A stretch of DNA of 64,000 nucleotides from Mytilus trossulus. Lineage: Eukaryota. The DNA lies in contig NC_086381.1 of the NCBI RefSeq assembly GCF_036588685.1, forward strand, positions 54,002,001 to 54,066,000. Direction: 5' to 3'. The notes under the pieces are model-generated. The model saw only the letters and a program-made list of their open reading frames with translations, did not search any database and had not been told where the DNA came from. Positions within the stretch are counted from its first letter, which is position 1, and every line of letters begins with the position of its first letter. Shown here piece by piece: positions 1,485 through 60,555 of the stretch. Position numbers and translations under genes: made by a program.

Positions 1485-2480
1485 AAACATATTACACCAG
1501 GGTTTTCGATATCACAAACTTGTCAAAAGTTTTACCTAATTTTATCATCGGTACCAGGACATACTTCGTAGATATAAGTCAATGAACAGAAATTTTATGC
1601 GTACAGGTTTATCACATCCCATCTTTTATGGTTATATTTTATCAAAGCACAAAAATGTCGTCATTAACCTGAAAAACTAACCAAACCTTTTAACAAACTT
1701 ATCAATAAGGGATATAGTTACGATAGTTACTCTTGTCAAGTCATTTAAGGTGGTACATAACACTACAGGGAGATACATTTGTAAAAATCAGCATAATGTT
1801 TTAATCACGTTCTATTGTTAAGGGAATATTAAGCTTCTCAAAGACCAAAATTAGTGTTTGTCAAACTGCTATGTATCCAATGATTTTTTTCGATAAAGTG
1901 AGTGGTTCAAGTTTTTTGAAATTTTTGTCAAAGGGTCAAAGTCAATATTTTGTCAAAATTTAATGAAAATTACACGAGCCAAATTAATTTTAGTCAAGCT
2001 GTTTGGTACAACCTTAAGACGTTTTTTTTTTTATTAATTAATATTTATTCACTCGTACACTGGGTCTTTGCATCAGAAATAAACACATTTATTCTTAACG
2101 CAATTGTTGGCATGATACTGATTATGTTCTTTTCTTATACATGTAACTTATAATACTAAATCCCTAATAGGAGAGATTGTGGTTGATTTTCTATACGATG
2201 GAGACATGATTTTGGATCAGTTTTATTGAGGTCTGCAGCTAGCATGTCAGTAACTGCTAGAAGTCCTTTATCATTTTGTTTTGATCATTGTGATTTTACT
2301 TAGTTTCTTCTGTTACCTATTCTCACATCGGCATCGGACTTCTTTTGATCTGATCGTATTGCTGTGTGTTTGTTTTTTCCCACATTGGCTAAAAGTATGA
2401 GATCTCACAGAACATGTTTGACCCATCCGCATGTTTGCGCCTGTCCCATGTCAGGACCCTCTAGCCTTTGTTATCTCTTA
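1485..2480 (+). mobile_element. Naiad family B 3' portion (RT C-terminus plus long 3' UTR with partial twister motif), interrupted by a MITE
   Basis: LHQGFRYHKLVKSFT*FYHRY resembles LNQEFQMVKLKSSLRKFYGRH of the intact ORF; downstream 2150-2460 aligns with the reverse complement of 42770-43085. Confidence 0.75.
1749..2013. mobile_element. Kolobok-like MITE
   Basis: TTAA on both sides (1745-1748, 2014-2017); termini GGTGGTAC...GTACAACC; interrupts the RT remnant. Confidence 0.7.
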
Positions 2481-8648: not shown

Positions 8649-9268
8649 GTGCCTTTGCACAACTTGCATTGTTTTTTCCGCATGTTCTGTAACCCAAAAT
8701 TTCCGAGGATCCTGTTTTATACCTTAAATATAATAAACATATAATATCTGTAACAATCTTTGTGAGTCTGTGATAACCTAAAGCGGGAGATGATGGAAAT
8801 ATTTCCTTTACGTAAGAATGTTTTCAATTAAACACAATTGCTTGCGGACAACGGATGGAAGATTTCTGGATCTGAAAAATATTTTATTGACTGTCCGAAG
8901 GCACTGGTGTCTCGTTAATAGTGATTCCTTTTTAATTGGAAGGAGAAACGATAGAAAGTCAATACGAATATATAATTAAAAAAAATATGGAATGTGTAGA
9001 TTCGAAAACAAAACACATATTAAGCGGAGTGTTTATAAAATAGAAAAGGTTCGTTTTCAATGAAGTCTACATGTGTGATTTTCATACAATTGTATTATCA
9101 TTGTCTTTATTGATACATGTAACATATGCCAACTTTTATGACTCGTATGATTTCAATAGATTAACATATGCCTCTGTCCATATGTACCCTGTTATAATCT
9201 AGAGATCATGATATTTGCTGGAGGGTTTTAATATGATAATTTACTTTTACAATGTGTTTTTGTTTCAG

Positions 9269-20327: not shown

Positions 20328-20562
20328 AAGGGACATTTAAACTCATAAGTTGAAAATAAACTGACAACGCCATAGCTATAAAGGAAAAAATACCAACAGA
20401 CAAACAATAGTACACACAACACAAAATAAGAAAATAAAGACTAAGCAACACGAACCCTACCAAAATCTGGGGCTGATCTCAGGTGCTCCGGAAGGGTAAG
20501 CAGATCCTGCTCCACATGGGGCACATGTCGTGTTGATCATGTTAGTACAAACCCGGTGAAAA
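20328..20562 (-). mobile_element. Older 3' UTR fragment of Naiad family A
   Basis: Aligns to 53316-53545 (tgatctcaggtgctccggaagggtaagcagatcctgctccacatg). Confidence 0.85.
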
Positions 20563-28300: not shown

Positions 28301-30124
28301 AAACAAATTAACCGAACTTCACTTTGCATTGGACGACAGCATACACAAATCAATGATGTTTGTTGTTAAAAATACTGTGACGCAGTCATCTATCTTTATA
28401 TGTTGATTTTTTTATTAGGAATATACATGAAACATCACAAACCGTATTGTAGATGATATGTGTATTAACAATACAAGTAAAATGATTAGTTAAAGAAACA
28501 AATAAAAAATGTGTAAAATGTTTTTTTCTCTGATCTATAATTTTCTTTTAAAAATACTAGTTTTAGTGACGTCAATTTATCAAACTTAGCAGGGTATTAG
28601 TACTCGGCCAGATTGTAGATTCGTCCATGCTTTCTCAAACATACAAAACATATGATGGGTCACCGTGTTGTTTTATAAGCTAAACGTCATGCTAAATTTC
28701 CCAAATATGCATAGATTGTTAATGCAAAATCACTTTTTTTTTGTGAATAAAAAGAAATCTATGAGATATAATTTTGAAATAAAATATGAGAAGATAGGTT
28801 TTAGATTGTTCTTTAAGAAAATAAAAATAAAAAATGGTGTCATCGACCTGGTTTTCTTTCTACAATTCAAAGTTGAACACTGCTTAATCATTCCATTTGA
28901 GTTATCACCCCTTTAATGGCTTAGTTGACAATTTGAATCGAACAAACAAAAACCTTTGGTACTGGATAAATCTGTCCAAATATTTCAATAAGCCACTCCT
29001 TTTCTTTTATTCATATTAACACTCATTACCCATTATTCTGTTTCAAAATTTGCAGATTTAAGCAAAGAACTTGACCTACTGGGAACTTCTATTTTACAAT
29101 CCAAGATGTGTTATACAGTTAATCTATCTAGTAAAAATAAATGTGAACCCTTGAATGAATTCGAACTTCCCCAATTTAGCTGTTATATGTACTCTACATT
29201 TTATTCACTACTCATACAAAAAAAAAACATAGTCTCGGTGCATTATGTATATGCCAGTTTGTTTTTCAAAGTTGAAGTATTTGTTTCTTTTTTTATAATG
29301 ATTAAGATTATAACACAATGCTGACTGTTGTACCCCTATTTTTTCTATTGTTACCTATTATGTCTGTTTGTTTTTGTTAGCACGTTGTCGTTATAGTAGA
29401 ATTTTATGCGATTGTAATACAAGTGAGATGTTTAGCTAGCTATAAGGTGTAATCCATCATTTTCTACAAAAGGGAATGTCTGAACCAAGTCAGGAATATG
29501 ACAGTTGTATTCCAATCGTTGTAATCATCGGATATTGTCCAAAACTATTGACTTTTAAGAATTGTCTGAGTCATGGGTAAACAGTTTCCAAAAGTATTTC
29601 TCAATTAGAACGAAAGCCGACCTGTGACTTCTTCTTATAAATTTTATGAATTAACACAAAATGTAAAAAAATAAAATAATAGCTGATCTATTTTACATTA
29701 TATAATAATTATTTATGGATATCCGTATCGTTAAAAATCCCTCACAGTCAGAGTCAGAGTAATTCGATTTATTATACTGCACGTTAAAATGCCATATTTT
29801 GATTGGCTAATACGAGGGTGTTAAATTACTCTATCACATGGTTAAGCGGGTGGTAATTTTTTTGAATGTCATTCCTCTCGTCTCGATCAATCAAAAATCG
29901 ACAATTCAAAGGATAATGAATTGAATTTACATCAAGTAATTAAAGACAATGCTTAAGTTCTACGTTTTGGCTCAGATTTTATTATTTGACTGTCATTTTG
30001 CTTCACTTCTGTTGATTGTTCTAATACCCATAACGTTGTTATATACGTGACGTCATATAAAATACTTTTAAATACAATTCATCTGTAAACGATAATAATG
30101 ATAGGACACTCAGTATAATAAATT

Positions 30125-33078: not shown

Positions 33079-33656
33079 GGAGTAGGTCCGGTAAGGATCG
33101 ATTTTGGCCTCAAATTTAAGTTTCATCTGACGAAAGATTTTGACCACTTTTTAAACACTTAAGTGTCTATTTCATATGATTCAATTAATCTATGTGCAAG
33201 ATTTTAACCTATTTAGTCATTAAAAACGATCCAATTCAAGCTCAAATATGAAAAATCTACCAAATATGCGAAAAAATGTCACTTTTCAGATGGTTTTTGT
33301 CAAAAACGAAAGTGGCCGCATCCGTGTTCATCCTCAATCTTTACATATGTTATGTATTATCATCAAATACAACTTCCATTTCAATATTTTGGATGAACAC
33401 GAATGCGGCCACTTTCGTTTTACCCGGAAACTGTCTAAAATTTAACTAAAATGCTGGAATTGTGAAGATTTCAGTAATTTAGCACGACTTCATGGTGCTA
33501 GTACTCAATATATGTGCATTGTATTGTCAAAAACAGCCCATATTATTGTAGCAGAACCATTCTACTATCTAATAACTAAGAAAAAGTTTAAATTTTAACA
33601 ATTTTGTAAAACTGCTATATTTTGGGGCCAAAAAGAAGTCTTACTGAACCTACTCC
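33079..33656. mobile_element. MITE with ~30-bp TIRs and an internal 31-bp inverted repeat, nested in a dispersed repeat
   Basis: ggagtaggtccggtaag...ttttggcc / ggccaaaaa...cttactgaacctactcc; internal IR 33303-33333 / 33391-33421; host repeat continues on both sides (gaactccgagaaa | tttcaaaacgg). Confidence 0.8.
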
Positions 33657-35381: not shown

Positions 35382-38300
35382 GTGGAACAACAGAGACGCA
35401 AAGCGGGACATTTAGACTGTTAATGGACAACTTATCGTCAGATAGCGCTGAAATTGACTTGGAACCAGGTTAGCGTATAATTCCCTTTACACGATGCAAC
35501 ACAATATCCAAGACACAATAGAGACAAGTAAAGTCGTAGAAGGTAAAAATCTTTATGTTTTTTAAGAGTAAAAAATAAAAATAAAAGGAAATGTATATGT
35601 TAATTAACTGTAGGAGAGCATAACAATAGTATCATCATTATCATACATGTTAAAAAAATATAAAAAATACATGTTGTCATGACAAGGTAGAGATTTGTAA
35701 ATGAAATTTGTATTTGAAAAGCTTATGATATCCGGCCATGTTGGTTTGAACGATAAAATAAGGAATAACATTTATTGAAGAAGACTTATATGGTGTTACA
35801 TTGTTCATACAATTTTTGATATATTGGCCACTAGATTTTAAAAATCAACTAAAGAAAATCTTTTGAAATCATCTAAAATAGCTATGGAATCAGATCTGAT
35901 TGTCACTAACTGTGAGATAAAATGCGGAAGTTGTATATCAAAATACAGCAAAGTTTGCTCTCAATGGATTTATGACTTTCGAACAGCGGTACACTACTTT
36001 TGTCTTATTCAAAACGCATTGTTGACTACTTTTACTTTTTGTTTATATTTTTATACAGTTTTCAGTTACCTAACCTTGTTTTACAGTAAATTAACACTGT
36101 TGTAGGTCTACTATATACACAGGTTTATCATAACTTTTTTTTATGTATGTACAATGTATATAATAGTGTTCAAATATCATGACGACAATAATAAAGTACT
36201 CTCCAGATATATAAGTCGATATATTGGAAATAATGTAATACACTCATTATTTCATTGATAGAAAGTACCATTATGGTTAATAATTGCGAATAATAAAAAT
36301 AAATGGTTATCATATGAAAAAAGTAACTAGTAACCTACCATACATTTAACAGAATTTGTATTGAACCAGTAATCTGAACTACAATACTACTTTTATGCAC
36401 AACTGTTTGCGTATGCATTCGATATAGATCGATTTCTTCCTGAATTTCGTTGCTGAAATCTATCTTTCTTATTACCATTCACCAAATGCCTCAGTACTGT
36501 TTAGTTAAATGCTCTAATACTGTTGAAAGACTGCTTTCACTGGTTATTTTATACATGTTATACTTTTTGATGTTCATACCAAACACAAGTATTTGCAATA
36601 CAATTATTTCCTCGTGTTTCAATCGGCTTTGCGTTTGACCAGGTTTTTTTCTCTTGATTAGTTGATTTATGACCATGGAACTACAGTATACTACTGTTGC
36701 CCTCATTTATCACTAATCGATTCCTTACCAGATTAACAGCACTAAATGTCATTTATTTTGTGGAATGTAACAAGTTTATGTTTCTATATTATACACATCA
36801 TTTTATGAGATTACTATACATTGTAAACAAAAATATGATCAAGTACGCCAAATCACAAAAAAATCAATTCCTGATTGCTGTTTTTGTTTTGTAACAATGA
36901 TTTTTTTTTTTAAATTACAAACCAGATTTGTTTGCACTATCTTTGCAAGTGAGTACCGATACAAGTTCCGAGGGATTTTTTTTTTATAAACATAGGTCTG
37001 GAGTAGATTTTTATTTTCCAGCAACCTTAAATTCATAAATTATTTTGTGCATTTATTATTGAGATTATAAAGATGGCCAAAAGTGAAATTAATAGTTGCA
37101 ATTTAAAGAAAATCTTCATACGGAGATAATATCAAATACCATAATGTGATTTATTTTGGTTGCGATTCTCATCAAGTCGTACTATTCGCTTCAATAACAA
37201 CTAAGCTATACTTTAATTTACATATATTTACATTATTTATGTGTTTTATAGTTTGATTTAGAAAAAATCCTGTCATGTAGTTGTGTTATGTTAGTGTTAT
37301 ATTTAACATTGTCATACTAGTGCTTGGTTTGGCTAGCCACAAAACCAGGTTCAACCCACCACGTTTCTTAAAATGTCCTGTACCAAGTCAGGAAAATGGC
37401 AGTTGTTAATTTATAGTTCGTTTCTGTGTGTGTTGCATTGTCGTTTGTTTTTGTTCACTTCTGGTTTCTGTTGTTTCGTTGTTTTCCTCTTATAGTTGAT
37501 GTGTTTCCCTCGGTTTTGGTTTGTAACCCGGATTTTTTTTTGTCTCAATCGATTTATGACTTTCGAACAGCGGTATACTACTGTTGGCTTTATTTAAACC
37601 AGCTTTAATCTACCAGTTTATACATAAGACAGGAATATGACAGTTGTTTTCCGTTCGTTTGATGTGATTGAACTTTTGATTTTGCCTATTGATAACGGAT
37701 TTTCCGATTAGAATTTTCCTTGGGTTTATTTTTGTTGGTATCAATGTTATTTTCCTTTTTTTATAAAATTTACATTAATCCAAAGCTTGTTTATTTGATG
37801 ACCTTCTTCTCATTGTAATTAAAACAGTACTGAAGGGGCGTCCGTTTTGTAGTCGAGGGTGCATAGAAACGTATTTGTATGCTTTTAGAATTAAGATGTG
37901 AAATTAGATGATCTTTTGCGGTGAATATCCCGCTACCTAGATTTGTGCTGAAACGTATGCTCGAAACTACTCAGATGGATCATTGAGTGGCATGTTGCAA
38001 TATAAGTGTCAATCCTTTTTGGACCATACGTCCTTTAAATGGAAGATTTGACGTGCTATCCTGTTTACCGGTTGAACATATATGGACAATCTATCTTATG
38101 GGCCATGTAACCTAGTTATAGTAAAAAATATCGATGAATAATAAAGCAACCTATTGCTCAATTATATCATCGGTTGGCATTTCATGCGCCATCTTGTGTT
38201 TTAAATAAAAGATGGATGTCAAATACATTTTTTCTTCAAAGTGTTGATACACTCGGTTTCAGTAATTCAAAAATATACATGGAACAAGAAATATCATGTC

Positions 38301-42579: not shown

Positions 42580-43555
42580 GGGTAGAAAACAGCTGAGTGC
42601 CACATACATGTATGATTCAACACATCGATAAAATACCGCACACCGAGGCGTGCTTCAACTTGTCCCTTAATAGTATGTGCAGTAGTTCGGTGAAAATGGA
42701 CGTCACACTAATCTAAAAAATATATAGATACACTAAAAATTAAATTATACAAGACTAAACAAGTCCAGAGGCGCCTAACTTAGGACAGGTGCAAACATAT
42801 GGCGGGGTTAAACTTTGTTAGATCTCAACCCTTCTCCTTATACCCCTAGCCAAAGTAGAATAAACAAACACAGAGCAATTCGCACAGTAAATTTCATTTC
42901 AAAAGAAGTTCGAGTGCGATGTCAGAAAAGGTAACAAATGATACTAAGCAAAATGAAAATGATATATAAATCAACATAGGACATATAGAAGCTACTGACA
43001 TGCCAGCTCCAGACCTCAATTAAATTGATTTAAGATTTAATAGGTATGAAATCAAGACCAATCCTTCCCGTTCGGAATTTAGTATCACACCATCTTCAAT
43101 ATATGATAATAAAATAATCCGTATCATGTCATCATATGGTTTTAGAACGTATAGGTTAAATTCTGATGCAAAACCCCAGTTAAGAATCAATATTGATACC
43201 AAAATGGGCCATCTTTAATGCCATGACTAACAGTATCGTTTATATATATCTTATGGATAGGTCTTGTTAAAGGTTTGTTTAATTTTTTTGGTGAATGCCG
43301 ATTTTTTGTGCTTTGTATAGAACATGTACAATATTACCATACAATATTGGATGTGAATCGAACAAGTTGAGACAAATAAACTCCATAAGATGGTGACAAC
43401 GGTACATCAGCATCTGACAATAGATACTTAACAATAGGAAATGGTAAATCATGTCTTTTTTCATAAATTTTGGTTTTGAGCTTCCTGCTAAAGTCACAAC
43501 GGTATATCGTTATTTGCTGTATTGACGGTTTCATAAATTTTATCTTTGACCTGTA
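42580..43555 (-). mobile_element. Naiad family B 3' portion (RT C-terminus, 3' UTR, twister-like motif at 42774-42837)
   Basis: LKTKIYEKRHDLPFPIVKYLLSDADVPLSPSYGVYLSQLVRF matches LKTKLYDKRDDFSFPIVNFPFLSSNIPAAPAYGVYISQLIRY; UTR homologous to 2150-2460. Confidence 0.8.
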
Positions 43556-45932: not shown

Positions 45933-47297
45933 TTTGCAAAGGACCCTAACTGCCATTTTAAATTTTAGTTGCAATTGGTTTTGTATATAGCTACAAGGTG
46001 TAAAGTATATTGTCGATCGCGATATGCTTCATTGGCAAACTGTAAAGCTATTTATCAACATAGTTTATACTCTTGTAGTAAAAACAATATAATGGAGTTT
46101 AAATTCTGATTCGTAAACTCAAACAAATATAAAATATTTATCAAATAATCACAAACTCTCACAAGGGAGATGCCACTTGCAGAGACAAGCTCACATTTTA
46201 TTATACATATGAGGATAATAGTGTGGAAAGTTCGTATAAATACACCTTTATTAAGCAGCTGGTACTGGTTTTCCCATAATATATAGCTAGTGGTCTACAA
46301 AATCTGAAAATAAATAATATAAATAATAACAGTATTTACTTGGTAAAATCCTACTGTACACTTTGACTGTAATGGCTCGAATGACTTTAAACTACATGAG
46401 TTCACTCGTGCATGCACTCAATATCCTAATCGAACCGACCTTACTATAATAAACCAAACTAGTGTCAACTAGAAACCAACAACATTTTTGCATGTTCGAT
46501 TTTTGTACAACTTTGATAAATACTAATTCGTAATCTCAAACGAATATTAAATATTTATCAAATAACAACAAACTCTCACATGGGAGACGCCACTTGCAGA
46601 GACAAGTGCGCTCGAACACACAAAGAACGGGAAAATAGCATTGAGTATTTATGTTAATACCCTATTTTTTTATAAACAGATAATTGTGCTTTGGAGTCTT
46701 CTCTAACGTAACCATCCTTTTCTCTGTCCGATTTAACCTGTTTTGCTTCAGAATAATCCGATCAGAAATACCGGTGTAAGCCCTGGCTCTTGTATATGTA
46801 AGACGTCTGGAACTTATGAACATTGTACTTCTTAGTGAATGTTATTCTAACTAAAAATTAACCAAGGTGTATGTCAGCATCTTACATATAGCTATTAAAA
46901 GAAGTTTATTAAGCCATTGTTTCATATCTAATAATACCAATATGTATTTCTGAAGTTCAGCCAAATAGCTTCAATAATAATCAGTAGTGCCTAAAACATT
47001 CGTTCCAGTGAATTTAATTACTACATACTTAGTGACTTAAATAATAAACGTCCAAGTGGCTTCAATAACTACAAGCCTAGTGTCTTCACCAACAACCAGC
47101 CCAATGTCTTTAATAACAACCTGTCAAGTGTCTTTAACAACAATCTGTCCAGTGTCTTCAATAACAACCTGCCAAGTGTCTTTAATTACTGCATTTCCAA
47201 GAATTTACTCACGTTTTTTTGGTACATTTCTACCTTCGTATATATCAGTACTGTTCGGCAAGACAGATATCTTGTAATGTTATACTTTTTGTTTATT

Positions 47298-47508: not shown

Positions 47509-47599
47509 ATTCAACACTAATTAAATCAGTTCTATATCTGTAGGGAATGTTTCATTACTGTTGAACATATAAACATTGATTGAGTTAGTTTCAGAAAAA

Positions 47600-47667
47600 G
47601 GGAGAAGGTTTGGGCCCATTAAAACGTTTAATCCCGCTGCAAATGTTTGCACCTGTCCTAAGTCAGG
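47600..47667 (+). ncRNA. Putative twister ribozyme, type-P5 permutation (best-preserved copy)
   Basis: GGGA(P2) GA AGG(T1) ... U^AA UCCC(P2) GC(T2) UGCAAA/UUUGCA(P3) CCU GU CCU(T1) AA GU(T2) C AGG(P4); all twister core elements except a conventional P1. Confidence 0.7.
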
Positions 47668-47932
47668 AATCTGATGTACAGTAGTTGTCGTTTGTTTATG
47701 TAATATATACGTATTTCTCGTTTCTCGTTTTGTTTATATAGATTAGACCGTTGGTTTTCCCGTTTAAATGGTTTTACACTAGTAATTTTGGGGCCCTTTA
47801 TAGCTTGTTGTTCGGTGTGAGCCAAGGCTCCGTGTTGAAGGCCGTACTTTAACCTATAATGGTTTAATTTTTAAATTGTTATTTGGATGGAGAGTTGTCT
47901 CATTGGCACTCACACCACATCTTCCTATATCT
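47600..47932 (+). mobile_element. Probable 5'-truncated retroelement 3' end beginning at the twister motif
   Basis: Ends in ggatggagagttgtctcattggcactcacaccacatcttcctatatct; a shorter copy is at 33995-34196. Confidence 0.7.
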
Positions 47933-50900
47933 ATGTACCTCCTCTTTTCAGTGCATTTACTAATAGATCACTGTGTTCATAAAAAAGATGTCCTCTCTTT
48001 AAGTACGTAAATAAGCATCTTTTTTAAGGTTTTATTTGTTTCTATTTCAGGTAAAATTTAGTTTATTTACCTTACCTTAAAATTAGTTACAATGTTTACA
48101 TTTGAATGCATACAGTGATGCCTATTTAAAAGGTCGTAGGTTGTTTTGTATTTTTGGGGTGGGTTAATTGTTCTCTTTGGACACTTACCCCATTTCCATT
48201 CAATTTCTATATCGTGACATGTTGATGTCTTCAACGACAACCTGCCCAGTGTCTTCAACAATTACCAGCCCATTGTTCTCAACACCAATCAGCCCAGAGT
48301 CCTCAACAACAACCATTCAAATGTCTTCTATGAGTCCAGTGTCTTCAAGAACTACCAGCCAAGTGTCTTCAATAACAACCTAACCAGTGGCTTCAACAAC
48401 AACTAGACCAGTCCCTTCCAGTCTCTTCAACAACTACCAGCCAAGTGTCCTCAACAACAACCAGCACAGGGTCTCCAACAACAACCAGCTGAGAATCTTC
48501 ACTAACTACAAGCTCAGTGTCTTCAATAACAACATGCCCAGTGGCTTCAATACCAAATTTCCCAGTGGCGTCTATACTAACCTGCCCATTGGCGTTTTTA
48601 CCCACCTTTTAAGTAGCGTCAATAACAACATGCCTAGTGACATCAATAATGATCTGCCTAGTGTCTCAAATAACTATAACTATTCAGCCCAGTGGCTTTA
48701 AAAATGACATGCCAAGTGGCTTCAACAAAATTAACAACAACCTGTCAAGTGGCTTCAACAACAAACTGCTCAGTTGCTTCAAAAACAACCCGCCCAGTGG
48801 ATTCAACAACAACCTGTACAGTGGCTTCAATACCAACCTGCTCAGTGGGGTCTTTACCAACCTGCCTAGTAACTTAAATAACTATAGCTTACAAGTCAGT
48901 GGTTATAATTACGACAATCTAAGTGGTTTCAACAACAACCAGCCACGTGTCTTCAACATCATGATGTCCACTGGCGTCCATAACAACCTGCACAGTGTCT
49001 CCAATAACAACCTGCCCAGTGGCTTCAATAACAAGATGTCCAGTGTCTTTCATACCAACCTGACCAGTGGTGTCTATACCAACCTGCCCAGTGGCGTCAA
49101 TAAAACATGCCCAGTGGCCTAAATAACTATCAGCCCAGTAGCTTTAATTACGAACTGCCCAATGGCGTCAAAAACAACATGCCCAGTGGCTTCAATAACA
49201 ACCAGCCTAGTGGCCTTAATACCAGTCTAGTGGCGTCTATACAAACCTGCCCTTTGGCATCAATAACAACATGCTCAGACGATTCATGTTGTTATTGATG
49301 CCCAGTAACTTAATTACTATAGCTATCAGCCCAGTGGCTTTAATTTCGACAATCCAAGTGGTTTATATAACAACCAGCCACGTGTATTCAACATCATGCT
49401 GCCCACTGGCGTCAATAACAACTTGCCCAGTGACTTTAATAACAATCTACCCAGTGGCTTCAATAACAACCTTCTTAGTGGCTTCCATACTAACCTGCCC
49501 AGTGGCTTCCATACCAACCTGCCCAGTGGCTTAAATAACTATCAGTCATGTGCATTTAATCACAACATGCCCAGTGGCTTTAACAACAACCAGCACAGTT
49601 GTCTTCAACAACATCCGCCCCACTGGCGTCAATAATAACCTGCCCAGTGGCGTCAATAGCAACATGCCCGGTGGCTTAAATAACTATCAGCCCAGTGGCT
49701 TTAATTACGACTTGCCCAATGTCTTCAATAACAACATGCCTAGTAGCCTCAACTACAACCTGCCCAGTTGCGTCAATAACAACCTGTCCATTGGCGTCAA
49801 TAACAACCAGTTCAGTGGCTTCAACCAAAACTTGCCCAGTAGCTTCAATAAAAACATGCCCAGCGTTTTAAATAACTATCAGCACTGTGGCTTTAATTAC
49901 GACTTGCTGAGTGGCTCCACTAACAACTAGTCCAGCGGCATCAATGACATCCAACCAGTGACTTTGACTTCCTTAACAACCTGCCTAAGTGGCTTTAATA
50001 ACTATCAGTCATTTGCCTTCAATTTACAATATGCCAAGTGACCTCAATAACAAGCAGTTAGATGGCTTCAATAACAATCAACCCAGTGACTTCAATTACA
50101 AACAGTCAAGTGGCTATGATAAAAATGAGCACATTGGCTTCGATAATAACCAGTCAATTAGCATCAATGACAATCAGTCAGGTGCACTAGGTTTCAATAT
50201 TAACCAACACATGCACTAGATTTAACCATCAAAGAGCCAAGTGATTAAGACAAATAGTTACTCAGAAAGTACTCAATCCTAAAGAAATCTTCTAGTATCA
50301 ATCCCAGTGGTAATTAACAATGATTAAGCAACAATAATCAAACAAACTCTTAGTAACTGTATTATAATTTAGCTACAGTTCATAATACTATACATTATAT
50401 CATCTGCGCATGTCAGATTGTTATTTACCCTTTTTTAACCTTTTTAACAGTTAGTAATCATTAAAATCTGATGTATTACTGGATACCACCAAAAGAAGAA
50501 CTGAATTATTTATTCCCAAACTAGTTTAACTACACGTAGGTTAAAAAAAGTGACGCCCTTTTTTTTCGATCTTTGTACCGAAACAGTGAGTGAATTAATT
50601 ACACTAAAATATGTACTATATAAGATACAGATACAAATGTATTTCAAATATTAAACTCTGAACAAGGATAAAAAAATAAATAATTATAGTCTACACAATT
50701 CCTTACTCTGAATTAGTTTCTAAAACAATTGCAGCATTATTATATAGTTCTTGTTAAATATAACAGTATAACTGGTAAAACCGGGATCAACGGGATAGAA
50801 TAACTATTATCAATCATGTCTAAACAAATGAATTATCTTTCAAATAATTATATGGTCTTCTCATTTACCTAAACCGATTACGGAGAGGGATTCTTTTTCA

Positions 50901-53158: not shown

Positions 53159-53594
53159 GTTGAACAACGGGTTTATAGGGCGGGAATTGTAGACTGCTAC
53201 TTGACAACAAAGGTGTTTGATATGGGATACATCAAGTTTTGCAACAGGTCATGTCAGACCCCTAAGGAAGTTGGTACATGACAAGGATTCTTAAAAAGAG
53301 GGACGAAAGATACCAAAGGGACAGTCAAACTCATAAATCTAAAACAAACTGACAACGCCATGTATAAAAATGAAAAAGACAAACAGAAAAACAATAGTAC
53401 ACATGACACAACATAGAAAACTAAAGAATACACAACACGAACCCCACCAAAAACTAGGGGTGATCTCAGGTGCTCCGGAAGGGTAAGCAGATCCTGCTCC
53501 ACATGCGGCACCCGTCGTGTTGCTTATGTGATTACAAATCCGGTAAATAGTCTAATTCGGTAGGTCAAATTCATGAAAGGGAAGGGGATTGTAG

Positions 53595-56582
53595 TTACGA
53601 CGTAAGGAACATATCCGATATCATTTGTGAAACGGTTATTCCATAACGGTCAACCAACTCGTGATGGCGTCCGTAAAATTTACGAAGGGATGATTTCAAC
53701 TTCACCATTTGGAACTCTTGATTTAATAGCTTCCTTGTGAGCAGTAACCCTCTATCAAGAAAATCATGATAGGAAATGCAAGCACGGGAATATCTTATCA
53801 ATTGAGAGATATATACCCCGTATGCAGGTGCTGCTGGAATGTTGCTACTTAGAAATGGAAAGTTCACAATTGGAAAGCTGAAATCATCTCTTTTGTCGTA
53901 AAGTTTTGTCTTCAACCGACCCTCATTGTCAATTTCTAGATGTAAGTCAAGATATGAAGCTGACTGAACTGTATCAGTAGTATCCTTTATCTCCAATTCG
54001 ATGGGATAGATGCGTTCCACATAGTCACCAAATTTTGAATTGTTTAGTGAAAGAACGTCATCTATATAGCGAAAAGTAGAGTTAAAGGATATTGCTAACT
54101 TCTTATCTTTCTTCCTAAGAAGTTCCTGCATGAAGTCAGCCTCATAATAATAAAGAAACAAGTCAGCAAGTAGAGGGGCACAGTTTGTTCCCATTGGGAT
54201 GCCGACAGTCTGTTGAAAAACACGTCCTCCGAACGTAACAAATATGTTGTCAATCAAGAAATCAAGCATCTTGATAATATCGGTTTCAGAGAATTTTTTG
54301 TTTGAATCAGAGTGATTCTTTGCAAAGTAGGATTTATCCCTCCCTAAGACAAGATACTTGTATCTACGTTGGCCATTCTTTTTTATGAAACAAAGTAATA
54401 CCAACTCTTTTAATTTGTCTTTAAGTTTGGAATGTGGAATACTTGTGTAAAGATTAGAGAAGTAAAATGTTTTAATACTGTTACAAGATGAAAGAGAGTT
54501 AGATTGTATGTACTCTAAAAGATCTTTGGAATTTTTAAGTATCCCCATCTGATTCACGCCACCTCTAGAATAGGCAGTTTCACAATAACTTTGAAGTCCG
54601 TCTTTGATTGCTGATAAAATGGATGTTAATAATTTAGAAAGAGGTTTTGTGGAGCACTTGGAAGACCCAGCAATATACCGCTGTTTGTAAGGACACTTAT
54701 GTAGTTTAGGTATCCAATACAGTGATGGAAGATCCAGTTCTTCATCTTTGGTTGAAATACCAAAGGAACAAAGAACAGACCTATGATTATCCAGGATTTC
54801 CTCTTTGGTAAGTGTCGTGAGGGTATATGTTGAGTTTCCAAGTGAATTGTCTATACCTAATTCGTTTATCAAGCAATTAATGTAATGACTTTTACAGACA
54901 AAAACGATGTTATTTGGGGCTTTGTCTGCGGGGACAACAACATATTTATCATGGAGGTCGGATAGGTGTTTAGCAACATTTGGGTCTTTAAAGATTGACG
55001 TAGAATGGGCATTGATGGACCCATTCAGTTTCTTAATTCTGATTTGTATTAAGGACCTCACGGCCTTTATCCATTCGGATAGAGTGTCTACGTCTTCCTT
55101 CTCGCGCTTAGCCCATTGCCTGGCATAATCCTCGACTGAATCCATCAAAATTTTAAAGTTGTATTTCCAATTGATGGATTTAGGCTCACGATATTTCGGA
55201 CCTTTCGATAACACGTTTCGTAGAGAAGTGTTATTAACAATGTTAAGGTCACCGGTAATAACGTGGCCAGCAGGATTATATGTGAATTGGGAACTAGCAC
55301 AAGTGCAATCAGGAGGTTTAGACTTGAAGTCGTCAATATCGAGATCCTGCAAAACGCGTTTGTAATTGAAAATTTTAGTTGCAATAGGTTTGGTATAGGT
55401 ATAAGAAATTATTGGTACATACTGGTCTTTAAAATGAGGAGGTATTTTCGATTGAACTAATTTATGATGAAGGATATTACCAAGGTTGACGCCATCGAGA
55501 CCTTTGTTGGCAAAGGAAAGATTTAGAAAAGATCTTTTCTCTTTTTCATCTTTTCCAATGCGAACTGGCTTGAAAAGTCTGTGACTTGCAATATCCGCAA
55601 TTATAGCTTGAAGTTTGTATTGGTTTGAATGAGGGTTTGTAACAGTGGATTCCAAACATAAATTGAACAGAGAATGAAGTTTTGAAAGGGGTAATGAATA
55701 CAGTTTCGTGCGAATGAGATGAATACCTAACGGTTTTTGTATGAATGGCAGCAAGTCATTAATAGAGACATCATGCAGAGAGGGTGATGTATAATGACGA
55801 TGACCATGACTGCGTCTACGTCGAGGAGTCGAGTTGAAAATATTCATCACATTCACCGAGTTACACGAAGGACTAGATAGAATACCTATACCATCAAGTT
55901 TTTCATTGCAGCCATACGGTGTTGCAGTTCCCAATTGTCTAATCCAGTAGTCTTCTTTTTGTCTACGGAGAGTCGTTGAAAGATTAGGATTGTTAAAGCT
56001 ATGGTATATCTTTTCGATAATGCGAACTGTCATAGAAACGATGGAATGATCGGGCTGATTGAAATGCTGGTATAGAATGTCGTAAGCATTGAGGTTAATG
56101 TCTGATCTATGACCGCACATCCGTTTGTTTAGCCTTCCTTTCGTTTCACCGACGTATACCAATCCGCAAAGGTTGCACTCTAATCCGTAGACGACATTTA
56201 TCGATTTACAATTCAGATCATCGTAACTTCTGGTAAAATATGACTTCTTGGTCAAATTGCTAGTGAATTCAGCATCTGTAATTAAAATAGCACAAGTTTT
56301 GCAGCCTTTGGTCTCACATTTTGAAATGCGACAGTGTTGTACTGTGTCATCAAAAACCAAAATGTCTTTAAGGAGAACTGAACATGGCTGTATATGTGTA
56401 ATGTTGCTGTTGTCACTAGGACGATGATCTGAATGAGTCGTGTTTGGGATATTTGTCATGTCTGGTGATGAGGGGACACCTGCCGTATCAGACGACACCG
56501 TGTCCATGGTGACGTCTGTTTCGGACCTTTTTATACTGGGCGACGTCCGAGCCAGTTTCCTGTTAGTTTTTTGTAAGTTCAT
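53595..56582 (-). CDS. 995-aa Naiad ORF: N-terminal GIY-YIG endonuclease, CxC linker, PLE reverse transcriptase
   Basis: CKTC...NVVYGLECNLCGLVYVGETKGRLNKRMCGH...HF...H...EDYWIRQLGTATPYGCN (GIY-YIG with CCHH); PDCTC linker; ADK, YWIPKLHK, GIPMGTNCAPLLADLFL, RYIDD (RT). Confidence 0.95.
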   Translation of the reverse strand: MNLQKTNRKLARTSPSIKRSETDVTMDTVSSDTAGVPSSPDMTNIPNTTHSDHRPSDNSNITHIQPCSVLLKDILVFDDTVQHCRISKCETKGCKTCAILITDAEFTSNLTKKSYFTRSYDDLNCKSINVVYGLECNLCGLVYVGETKGRLNKRMCGHRSDINLNAYDILYQHFNQPDHSIVSMTVRIIEKIYHSFNNPNLSTTLRRQKEDYWIRQLGTATPYGCNEKLDGIGILSSPSCNSVNVMNIFNSTPRRRRSHGHRHYTSPSLHDVSINDLLPFIQKPLGIHLIRTKLYSLPLSKLHSLFNLCLESTVTNPHSNQYKLQAIIADIASHRLFKPVRIGKDEKEKRSFLNLSFANKGLDGVNLGNILHHKLVQSKIPPHFKDQYVPIISYTYTKPIATKIFNYKRVLQDLDIDDFKSKPPDCTCASSQFTYNPAGHVITGDLNIVNNTSLRNVLSKGPKYREPKSINWKYNFKILMDSVEDYARQWAKREKEDVDTLSEWIKAVRSLIQIRIKKLNGSINAHSTSIFKDPNVAKHLSDLHDKYVVVPADKAPNNIVFVCKSHYINCLINELGIDNSLGNSTYTLTTLTKEEILDNHRSVLCSFGISTKDEELDLPSLYWIPKLHKCPYKQRYIAGSSKCSTKPLSKLLTSILSAIKDGLQSYCETAYSRGGVNQMGILKNSKDLLEYIQSNSLSSCNSIKTFYFSNLYTSIPHSKLKDKLKELVLLCFIKKNGQRRYKYLVLGRDKSYFAKNHSDSNKKFSETDIIKMLDFLIDNIFVTFGGRVFQQTVGIPMGTNCAPLLADLFLYYYEADFMQELLRKKDKKLAISFNSTFRYIDDVLSLNNSKFGDYVERIYPIELEIKDTTDTVQSASYLDLHLEIDNEGRLKTKLYDKRDDFSFPIVNFPFLSSNIPAAPAYGVYISQLIRYSRACISYHDFLDRGLLLTRKLLNQEFQMVKLKSSLRKFYGRHHELVDRYGITVSQMISDMFLTS

Positions 56583-56594
56583 GCAATTGTAGTT

Positions 56595-56662
56595 TTGCTA
56601 CTGGGCGGATGATGTCCTCGGGGACAAAATGTCCACCAGCAGAGACATCGACCCAGTGGTAA
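56595..56662 (+). ncRNA. Structured element in the Naiad 5' leader with hammerhead-like topology on the antisense strand
   Basis: 11-bp closing stem ttgctactggg/cccagtggtaa enclosing CGGAUGA-U-gucc(ucgg)ggac-AAAA-uguc..gaca-UC; core deviates from CUGANGA/GAAA. Confidence 0.3.
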
Positions 56663-56964
56663 TAAAAGAGGGACGAAAGATACCAAAGGGACAGTCAAAC
56701 TCATAAATCTAAAACAAACTGACAACGCCATGGATAAAAATGAAAAAGACAAACAGAAAAACAATAGTACACATGACACAACATAGAAAACTAAAGAATA
56801 AACAACACGAACCCCACCAAAAACTAGGGGTGATCTCAGGTGCTCCGAAAGGGTAAGCAGATCCTGCTCCACATGCGGCACCCGTCGTGTTGCTTATGTG
56901 ATTACAAATCCGGTAAATAGTCTAATTCGGTAGGTCAAATTCATGAAAGGGAAGGGGATTGTAG

Positions 56965-58070
56965 TCACGACGTAAGGAACATATCCGATATCATTTGTGA
57001 AACGGTTATTCCATAACGGTCAACCAACTCGTGATGGCGTCCGTAAAATTTACGAAGGGATGATTTCAACTTCACCATTTGGAACTCTTGATTTAATAGC
57101 TTCCTTTAGAGCAGTAACCCTCTATCAAGAAAATCATGATAGGAAATGCAAGCACGGGAATATCGTATCAATTGAGAGATATATACCCCGTATGCAGGTG
57201 CTGCTGGAATGTTGCTACTTAGAAATGGAAAGTTCACAATTGGAAAGCTGATATCATCTCTTTTGTCGTAAAGTTTTGTCTTCAACCGACCCTCATTGTC
57301 AATTTCTAGATGTAAGTCAAGATATGAAGCTGACTGAACTGTATCTGTAGTATCCTTTATCTCCAATTCGATGGGATAGATGCGTTCCACATAGTCACCA
57401 AATTTTGAATTGTTTAGTGAAAGAACGTCATCTATATAGCAGAAAGTAGAGTTAAAGGATATTGCTAACTTCTTATCTTTCTTCCTAAGAAGTTCCTGCA
57501 TGAGGTCAGCCTCATAATAATAAAGAAACAAGTCAGCAAGTAGAGGGGCACAGTTTGTTCCCATTGGGATGCCGACAGTCTGTTGAAAAACACGTCCTCC
57601 GAACGTAACAAATATGTTGTCAATCAAGAAATCAAGCATCTTGATAATATCGGTTCCAGAGAATTTTTTGTTTGAATCAGAGCGATTCTTTACAAAGTAG
57701 GATTTATCCCTCCCTAAGACAAGATACTTGTATCTACGTTGGCCATTCTTTTTTATGAAGCAAAGTAATACCAACTCTTTTAATTTGTCTTTAAGTTTGG
57801 AATGTGGAATACTTGTGTAAAGAGTAGAGAAGTCAAATGTTTTAATACTGTTACAAGATGAAAGAGAGTTAGATTGTATGTACTCTAAAAGATCTTTGGA
57901 ATTTTTAAGTATCCACATATGATTCACGCCACCTCTAGAATAGGCAGTTTCACAATAACTTTGAAGTCCGTCTTTGATTGCTGATAAAATGGATGTTAAT
58001 AATTTAGAAAGAGGTTTTGTGGAGCACTTGGAAGACCCAGCAATATACCGCTGTTTGTAAGGACACTTAT
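56965..58070 (-). pseudogene. 5'-truncated RT copy within the upstream tandem repeat
   Basis: Begins at KCPYKQRYIAG; premature TAA at 57106-57108; the first ~21 aa of the tracked ORF 57106-58134 come from flanking DNA. Confidence 0.9.
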
Positions 58071-58803
58071 TTAACTTGCAAGGAACGTAGTATTCCTGCC
58101 ACACAAAACAACACAATATCCGAGACGTAAACAATTTAACGGCCTGAATATAGACAAGAGTACTGGTATAAGAACATTTTTGTTTTTTTTTTCAATTCAA
58201 AAGCTTAAAACATGAACAAAATTCAAAGTTATATTATTATATATCAGCGGTCAAACAGCACACTATTGACATAATACATGTACAAACCTTAATGAAATTA
58301 AAAAGAAGAACATTTTGGCATAACGAGGAAAAGATTTGTTAGTGAAATTTGCATAAAAACTTGTGATGTCCGGTCTAACTACAGACAATAAACATAAAAC
58401 CTGCTGTACCCTCTATAACAAACTGGTTTCATGCACTAACACCTTAGTACAGGTCATTTAGATGAAATATGGTATAATGTTTATCTGTGAAATGAAGTCA
58501 AAAATGGACCTTTCACACACCAACTGTTCCTCTCTTTTGTTTGTTTATGAACACCAGAAGATTGCTTTGATAGACAGCTGTTACGTTTTTCTCACGAATA
58601 ATTGATTTCTACATGATTTCTACTTGTTTGAGTTGCAACACTGGGTAATCTAGCTATAACGAAACTCTATACATACAAAACATGCAGTGGTTTTCTGTAC
58701 ATAGGGAGGAACAAGGGACATACATGTAACATTTGGCTAAATAACCATCGATCATGCTGCAACAAAAACAGTTCCCAGGCAAAACATATTCGCCTCACCT
58801 TAA

Positions 58804-59972: not shown

Positions 59973-60555
59973 AAGATGTGGTATGATTGCCAATGAGACA
60001 ACTCTCCGCAAGAGACCAAATGACTAAGAAATAAACAACTATATGTCTTCGTACGGCCTTCAACAAAAAGCAAAGCACATACCGCATAGTCAGTTATAAA
60101 AGGCCCCGAAATGACAAATGTAAAACAATTCAAACGAGAAAACTAAAGGCCTAATTTATATACAAAACTGAAATGAACTAAAACTAAAATGTAACACATC
60201 AACAAACGACGACCACTGAATTACAGGCTCCTAACTTGGGACAGGCACATATATACAGAATGTGGCGGGGTTACATATGTTAACTGGATCAAAACCCTCA
60301 CACTAACTGGGACAGTGGTGTAACAGTACAACATTAGAACAAACTAAAAAAAATAGTTGAAAAAAGCTTAGCTCATCAGATGGATACAAATAGAAATACA
60401 TCTAACAAAAAAACAGAGTGGACGTGGCTGTATACTTGTACATGTATATCCCAACAACAATACGACACTAAGTACAGGTCTGAGAGTACTCGCAATAACT
60501 GAGAGCTAGTCCAAAGCCACAAACAAATAATTAAAACAATCATGCATCTAAGACT
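59973..60555 (-). mobile_element. Longer copy of the agatgtggtatgattgcc family containing a twister-like motif (60230-60303)
   Basis: - strand GTGT GA GGG ... TAA CCCC GC CACAT..ATGTG CCT GT CCC AA GT T AGG. Confidence 0.7.

Follow-up and report, generated by a model that had tools for sequence, protein, structure and literature searches.

The sequence at 47591-47674 of the window, as we term the whole 64,000-nucleotide stretch of DNA analysed here, is on comparative grounds a type-P5 twister-type fold which is predicted to cut itself, although as a variant rather than a canonical member of that group. It lies in the 3' end of a Penelope-like element (PLE) of the Naiad group and, where helix P1 would be expected, it carries two palindromic boxes that are likely to pair with those of a second RNA copy. 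A known ribozyme class is therefore found in a new host element, together with strong comparative evidence for a pairing between copies. That these boxes, by pairing with their counterparts in a second copy, promote or couple the predicted self-cleavage at both sites is the reading we favour by a narrow measure. The bolder proposal that the bivalve Naiad twister is the first natural example of an obligate dimer, with a two-helix clasp for P1, a family-specific key and cleavage confined to tandems, is tentative and, in our estimate, falls somewhat short of an even chance.

A search of the 151 bases 47560-47710 against Rfam yielded a match to Twister-P5 (RF02684, clan CL00120) of 21.8 bits (E 0.0082), which falls below the gathering cut-off of 37.6 bits, and the twister was missed in a scan of the whole window, which gave no twister match at E<=1. 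All model positions 1-58 were matched in the RF02684 alignment, with 20 bases of the P1 region unaligned, and the U^AA, the G-A in L1 and the L4 consensus of the twister were all present. Hammerhead matches were absent from both the whole-window and the 47560-47710 scans, and the hammerhead catalytic core is lacking. A structure descriptor gave 87 matches against 5 in a reversed control over 824,709 bases, drawn from loci mostly selected for carrying the motif. These results, with the folding and the covariation described below, uphold the twister identity that had been proposed in the first-pass annotation.

On the forward strand the fold begins with the 5' arm of the P5 closing stem (47591..47595), which pairs with 47670-47674 in duplex folding and whose outer extension has been lost in the focal copy. 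The GGGA strand of P2, the conserved G-A and the AGG strand of T1 follow at 47600..47608, assigned from the Rfam alignment and T1 covariation, and within the G-A lies the predicted general-base G (47604). Box A, the palindrome TGGGCCCA at 47611..47618, and box B, AAACGTTT at 47622..47629, are each predicted to form an intermolecular helix, box B ending on U-1 and standing in for P1; both were already recognised as palindromic in the first reading of the sequence and proved to be longer than was noted then. The predicted cleavage site U^AA (47629..47631), with its cut between 47629 and 47630, follows the twister consensus. Beyond it lie the TCCC strand of P2, the GC strand of T2 and the P3 hairpin (47632..47651; Rfam alignment, descriptor and folding) and then P4, CCTG/CAGG, with loop L4 TCCTAAGT carrying the partners of T1 and T2, and the 3' arm of P5 (47652..47674).

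Covariation was examined in a MAFFT alignment of eight hand-picked representatives, in which 91.3% of the cells were paired and 9 of 21 pairs were changed on both sides; none of 500 shuffles matched this, a result that does not amount to a probability because the sequences are akin. When the registers were slid, pairing dropped to 27-54%. P2, T1, T2, P3 and P5 covary between families. T1 reads AGG/CCT, GGG/CCC or GGT/ACC according to family, and two of its three pairs, and one of the two in T2, are changed on both sides, while P3 and the closing P5 stem carry different letters in each family with pairing kept. P2 is paired in 91% of cells, with one pair changed on both sides, and P4 in 86%, with none, and by eye the letters of both differ in the published elements Mphi, Scon and Mmer. 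In a folding set of 14 representatives, from which family E was left out since the chosen copy had a degenerate L4, the P5 flanks formed duplexes of -6 to -21 kcal/mol in 13, distinct for each family.

The segment of 21-24 nt between T1 and the cut site has a folding energy of 0.0 kcal/mol in families A, B and C1, and none of the 14 representatives does better than -2.0 kcal/mol; duplexes of box A with box B range from +0.3 to -3.6 kcal/mol. These energies rule out an intramolecular P1 in any register, as had been suspected from the sequence, and a mini-hairpin within each box is ruled out because the two central bases covary. Self-pairing of the boxes gives -12.5 to -18.6 kcal/mol for A:A, where the boxes are Watson-Crick, and -3.6 to -9.4 kcal/mol for B:B, the family A box B being weak (-5.9). 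Palindromes are enriched over shuffled controls: among the 11 segments that occurred two or more times, there were 8 in which only 0.025-0.37% of 20,000 composition shuffles reached both palindromes; the remaining three were the GT and AC variants described below, both fetched deliberately, and a box with a central U-G pair. The summed self-duplex energy was reached by <=0.2% of 500 shuffles in 12 of the 14 representatives and by 1.4% and 2.2% for the GT and AC variants, respectively. The centres of the two boxes are 11-12.5 nt apart in every family examined. Across the eight aligned representatives all four pairs of box A are changed on both sides, compared with one of four for box B, where the outer AAC/GTT is nearly fixed and the centre varies by family; within family A that centre was CG in 94 of the first 100 of 3,606 copies, with no alternative centre among them.

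The letters of the boxes change between families while palindromy is retained, as had been claimed from the window, and this now extends over families A to E, metagenome contigs and published Naiad ends. Family B carries TGAGATCTCA and AAACATGTTT with a freely varying 1-nt linker between them and family D carries GGGATCCC and AACATGTT, a pattern for the two giving 5,983 matches. Family E, with GGTACC and GGCGCC, gave 177 matches. Family C gave 4,228 and shows TAGCTAGCTA, a shorter TAGCGCTA, and GGCTAGCC with AACCAGGTT; its P2 is shortened or bulged, and it reads identically to the 3' end of Naiad_Mgal. The metagenome contigs, where about 20 of 23 loci resemble the twister motif and several are decayed, add TGAGTACTCA, GCTATAGC, AAACTAGTTT and the box with the central U-G. 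Among 38 published Naiad 3' ends in the supplement of PMC8557442, of which the last ~450 characters each were inspected by eye, five (Mgal, Bpla, Mphi, Scon and Mmer) carry the twister with two other palindromes; they include the clams Scon, with a 12-nt box A, and Mmer, and the set shows further changes in P2, T2 and P4. The twister is unannotated in these five consensuses, and neither "twister" nor "palindrom" occurs in the main text of that paper. The family specificity suggested earlier finds support in the duplex energies of box A but is partial, box B being common to families A and E and likewise to B and D.

A fuzzy scan of the window revealed a twister-like L4 hairpin at six sites, along with two further fragments. 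The palindromes recorded at all six by the first-pass annotation read as given, with the correction that the six sites make up four families (A; B twice; C twice; D) rather than six and that five of them are decayed, an intact core being found in the focal copy only. Of the two family-B copies, that at 2399..2455 (+) has kept both boxes but has its P2/T1 strand deleted and its UAA changed, and that at 42774..42836 (-) has a shortened box B. The family-C copy at 29424..29494 (+) keeps box A TAGCTAGCTA with a damaged box B, a family-C-type copy at 37331..37392 (+) carries GGCTAGCC and AACCAGGTT, and the family-D copy at 60230..60300 (-) belongs to the family with boxes GGGATCCC and AACATGTT. The CATATG earlier read as a box within 60264-60290 arose by decay, and box B of family D is AACATGTT. 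Elsewhere in the window, a long inverted repeat at 33284-33440 with sub-threshold plant miRNA matches is probably a MITE-like element.

The pairing between copies that was proposed initially is supported by the two bases at the centre of box A. Among 3,267 family-A copies with fixed flanks, about 97% have GC, AT or TA at this position, and a hand count of the first 100 gave GC 50, AT 41, TA 8 and GT 1. Non-complementary centres, CA not being counted, total 98 of the 3,267 genome-wide (GT 54, AA 16, AC 8, TT 8, TG 3, GG 2, AG 2, CC 2, TC 2, CT 1 and GA 0), and since few master elements lie behind the copies, all these counts overstate the number of independent events. Neighbouring central bases are unable to pair in a hairpin, so that their covariation needs a second molecule or a second copy, and a pairing of the boxes between two RNA copies is likely.

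The ratio of GT to AC centres, 54:8, arises in contexts that are symmetric in DNA (binomial 1.7e-9, for copies that are not independent). GT, and not AC, can pair on the sense strand, as G-U, while the converse holds on cDNA, and the excess thus favours sense RNA and points to this strand as the one on which the pairing would act. Part of it stems from an amplified GT lineage, given that 9 of 20 GT copies fetched (of the 54) share two private changes and are ~1% apart; the other fetched GT copies occur on AT- and GC-type backgrounds, which would fit a path from AT through GT to GC, and all eight AC copies are scattered. Removal of the share of the GT lineage leaves roughly 30 to 8, and errors with a strand bias, made in RNA or during reverse transcription, could add to the excess. 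A similar wobble test with GGTGCC/GGCACC in family E was dropped, because CpG decay of GGCGCC gives both. In RNA runs X21-X24 family-A copies have AT and TA at the box centre in comparable proportions and hardly any GC, which indicates a turnover of the dominant palindrome between related genomes.

The focal copy is a solo, 5'-truncated 3' end (pLTR/3' UTR) of a family-A element at 47588..47934 (+). This fragment of ~350 nt shows a median identity of 97% to 26 other copies, with a fixed 3' end and a variable 5' end, and in family-A copies generally the 3' end lies at a common point about 305 nt beyond the cut site and the 5' end varies. One motif pattern found 3,759 copies in the genome G000 and none in the control. 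Longer copies continue into a Naiad EN-RT ORF with a Penelope-type reverse transcriptase (RT), and at two loci, L259 and L261, a 1,001-aa frame carries, by eye, an N-terminal GIY-YIG, CxC, DKA and a C-terminal RT. Pfam gave only a weak RVT_1 match for this frame (E 0.048) and none for the endonuclease piece. The combination of GIY-YIG, CxC, DKA and RT comprises the diagnostic Naiad features described in PMC8557442, and by these motifs the family-A host element is a Naiad. The frames (L259:2202-5207 and L261:2126-5131) are open only if selenocysteine is assigned to five TGA codons, most of which fall at cysteine-motif positions, and by eye a SECIS-like hairpin seems to be present in the family-A 3' UTR; in the available text of PMC8557442 selenoprotein Naiads are reported in clams and spiders only. 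The focal insertion is flanked by arrays of a 24-bp repeat (46957-47210 and 48209-50115), with broken frames, that could encode Asn/Ser/Gly-rich units of 8 aa.

Tandem arrangement, also anticipated from the window, was found in part of the family and not at the focal site. Among the best 30 of 40 scored copies that reach the 5' region of the element, and are thus near full length, an upstream 3' end abuts in 12 and an upstream twister lies at a fixed distance in 9, while 21 show no upstream twister within 1.5 kb. Nine tandem loci were fetched; eight have a pair of GC-box twisters separated by 4,410-4,445 nt, within pLTRs that are 97-100% alike, and L256 has a GT/GT box pair. Within the window no tandem partner accompanies the focal copy, which, being in addition a solo ~350-nt fragment, is most likely an inert insertion that records the design of its master. 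Two further arrangements were observed. At L052:2600-9440 the region directly upstream of a family-A element is occupied by a remnant of a family-B Naiad together with its twister, and from the duplex energies poor cross-pairing would be expected between the boxes of this mixed-family tandem. At L254-L255 (G000:C9:63.31 Mb) three GT-box copies occur ~3.5 kb apart without the 5' anchor of the element, and either segmental duplication or rolling insertion may be their origin.

Not all Naiads in the window carry the twister. A near-full-length Naiad tandem at 53400-58200 on the minus strand, with a 1,000-aa open frame at 53598-56597, has a different motif in its pLTR, comprising a GGGTG/CACC stem, a 10-nt palindrome, a small hairpin and a likely pseudoknot, with copies near 53488 and 56858 and others near 20501 and 45588. 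The same motif occurs in 9 of the 38 published ends (oysters, Tgra, Pmar, Skow and Pfla), its palindrome varying between species and including a G-U variant in the window; no credible Rfam match was obtained, and it is a candidate for an unclassified ribozyme or a dimer signal. Several nematode Naiad 3' ends in the supplement of PMC8557442 show hammerhead core boxes with long inserts, and Naiad lineages therefore appear to use differing ribozyme folds at the same place; that paper, in the text available, describes Naiads as lacking canonical hammerheads.

In the mechanism that we narrowly favour, a transcript starting in the upstream pLTR would hold two twisters, and A:A' and B:B' would form two side-by-side helices of 8-12 bp, each end being a junction with one core. 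B:B' would stack below the active site in place of P1, and the two cuts would free an RNA of unit length, ending in 5'-OH and cyclic phosphate and open to circularisation. Poor cutting would be expected of the monomeric circle and of most solo copies, as in the logic put forward for dimeric hammerheads in PMC4209133 and PMC6765202. An off-switch may contribute: monomer folds of several families have the AAC half of box B paired with the T1 strand, and B:B' pairing would then free T1. PLE hammerheads with palindromic loops are described as acting as dimers (PMC4209133, PMC6765202). Several considerations limit the proposal. Box B is weak in family A and only one of the four box-B pairs is changed on both sides, the Rfam score is sub-threshold, and 21 of the 30 near-full-length copies lack an upstream twister within 1.5 kb. 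Mini-twisters without P1 are reported to cleave at near wild-type rate (PMC5408937) and P1 imperfections brought no drop in cleavage in a large natural set (PMC11662667), so that P1 would be dispensable and a monomer may cut unaided; moreover, U-1 lies inside box B in several families, such that pairing could hinder the cut.

The best placed of the alternatives, which we nevertheless regard as unlikely, is that the monomeric twister cuts by itself and that the palindromes are a separate signal for RNA-RNA dimerisation. After the cut the boxes would lie at the 3' extremity of the unit RNA and hold two templates together, with possible roles in the assembly of ribonucleoprotein, in end joining, in priming, or in the template jumps by which pLTR tandems arise. 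The palindromes would in this respect resemble the dimer-initiation site of retroviruses. The exact termination of box B on U-1 in families A and B accords with such a signal, as does the varying 10-nt palindrome in the unrelated second motif of other Naiads (9 of 38 ends and also the window genome), which suggests that self-pairing may serve the element rather than the catalytic core. The dispensability of P1 noted above (PMC5408937, PMC11662667) also favours it.

RNA reads bear on the same alternative. Four raw RNA runs, chosen by species label, were mapped on L052:8833-9432, where the predicted cut falls at 9132/9133. In three of them, which belong to one study, the ratio of depths, minus-first over plus-first, is 0.30-0.35 around the cut, compared with 0.45-0.71 upstream and 0.46-0.72 downstream, a dip that a few loci could drive; in the fourth, which is probably unstranded, it is ~0.8-0.9 across the site. 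Provided that the first mate is the antisense one, the cut site lacks about half of its sense coverage. No pile-up of read ends was seen there in these runs, and many sense reads span the site. The dip is consistent with partial cleavage, or with selection against sense copies that are intact within transcribed DNA. The reads behind it are probably mostly from solo copies, and it consequently counts against a strict tandem requirement, with which it agrees less well than with monomer or trans cleavage, and suggests cutting by solo copies, as the monomer alternative would have it. Against that alternative, the boxes lie exactly at the P1 position, tightly spaced to T1 and the cut, although a free signal could reside anywhere in the 1-kb UTR, and the PLE hammerheads provide a precedent for dimer-gated cleavage (PMC4209133).

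Much less probable is a repressive role, in which B:B' would sequester U-1 such that paired RNAs are kept as templates and unpaired ones are cut. In families A and B, as in the published Mphi, Scon and Mmer, the palindrome of box B is indeed perfect and U-1 is its final base, and genomic copies end ~305 nt past the site, so that templates carry an uncut or rejoined site; however, the terminal pair is broken in families C1 (C at -1) and D (U opposite U), and a terminal A-U pair frays easily. We consider it more improbable still that the palindromes act on DNA or cDNA, by binding a protein or letting strands anneal, or that they arose by accident in a few masters, for although box B hardly varies in its outer bases, like a binding site, and thousands of copies derive from few masters, box A is palindromic in the face of no shared sequence between families, GT and AC would be equal on duplex DNA and AC the form able to wobble on cDNA, contrary to the excess of GT with its amplified lineage, and the shuffle tests of both palindromes and self-duplex energy argue against it.

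Should the obligate-dimer proposal hold, then, together with the dimeric hammerheads and the second Naiad motif, it would make RNA self-pairing a general step in Penelope-type retrotransposition, reached independently by unrelated folds. Naiads dominate many invertebrate genomes, and the reported absence of hammerheads had left open whether PLEs need a ribozyme; a twister at the place of the hammerhead in bivalve Naiads suggests that the need is for ribozyme function and not for one fold. The palindrome clasp would allow the dimer model of PLE RNA processing, which is of long standing, to be tested cheaply and on a small scale. It may also account for the tolerance of thousands of copies in host transcripts and, were cleavage to be dimer-gated, it would represent a natural, programmable two-input ribozyme architecture.

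Literature searches and term look-ups in openly accessible text, including PMC10085705 and two 2026 preprints, found no twister in Naiads or other PLEs and no dimeric or palindrome-paired twister. The bivalve motif shares with the type-P5 twister (RF02684) its order of elements, U^AA, G-A, L4 consensus, P2, P4, T1 and T2, and differs in having no P1 hairpin, with two palindromes in the segment of 21-24 nt instead, in the shortened or bulged P2 of family C, and in its host, a metazoan retroelement. The host agrees with the Naiads described in PMC8557442 in its N-terminal GIY-YIG, CxC, DKA, C-terminal RT, 5' truncation, partial tandems and unit of ~4.44 kb. The T-variant twisters of Perere-3 in Schistosoma, as presented in PMC8501958, likewise combine an atypical P1 with a retrotransposon and a cleavage tied to retrotransposition, but they lie at the 5' end of a LINE-type element and their P1 is completed by the target site, whereas the bivalve twister lies in the pLTR of a PLE and has palindromes instead of P1. 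Closest in organisation are the minimal type-I hammerheads carried by PLEs and by non-LTR retrozymes (PMC4209133, PMC6765202), which, as described there, share the pLTR, the tandem layout and the replacement of a required helix by palindromic sequence, and whose dimer model may by analogy apply here. The bivalve motif differs from them in belonging to another ribozyme class, in carrying two palindromes of 8-12 nt rather than one short loop, and in a predicted geometry that is not a simple strand-swapped helix.
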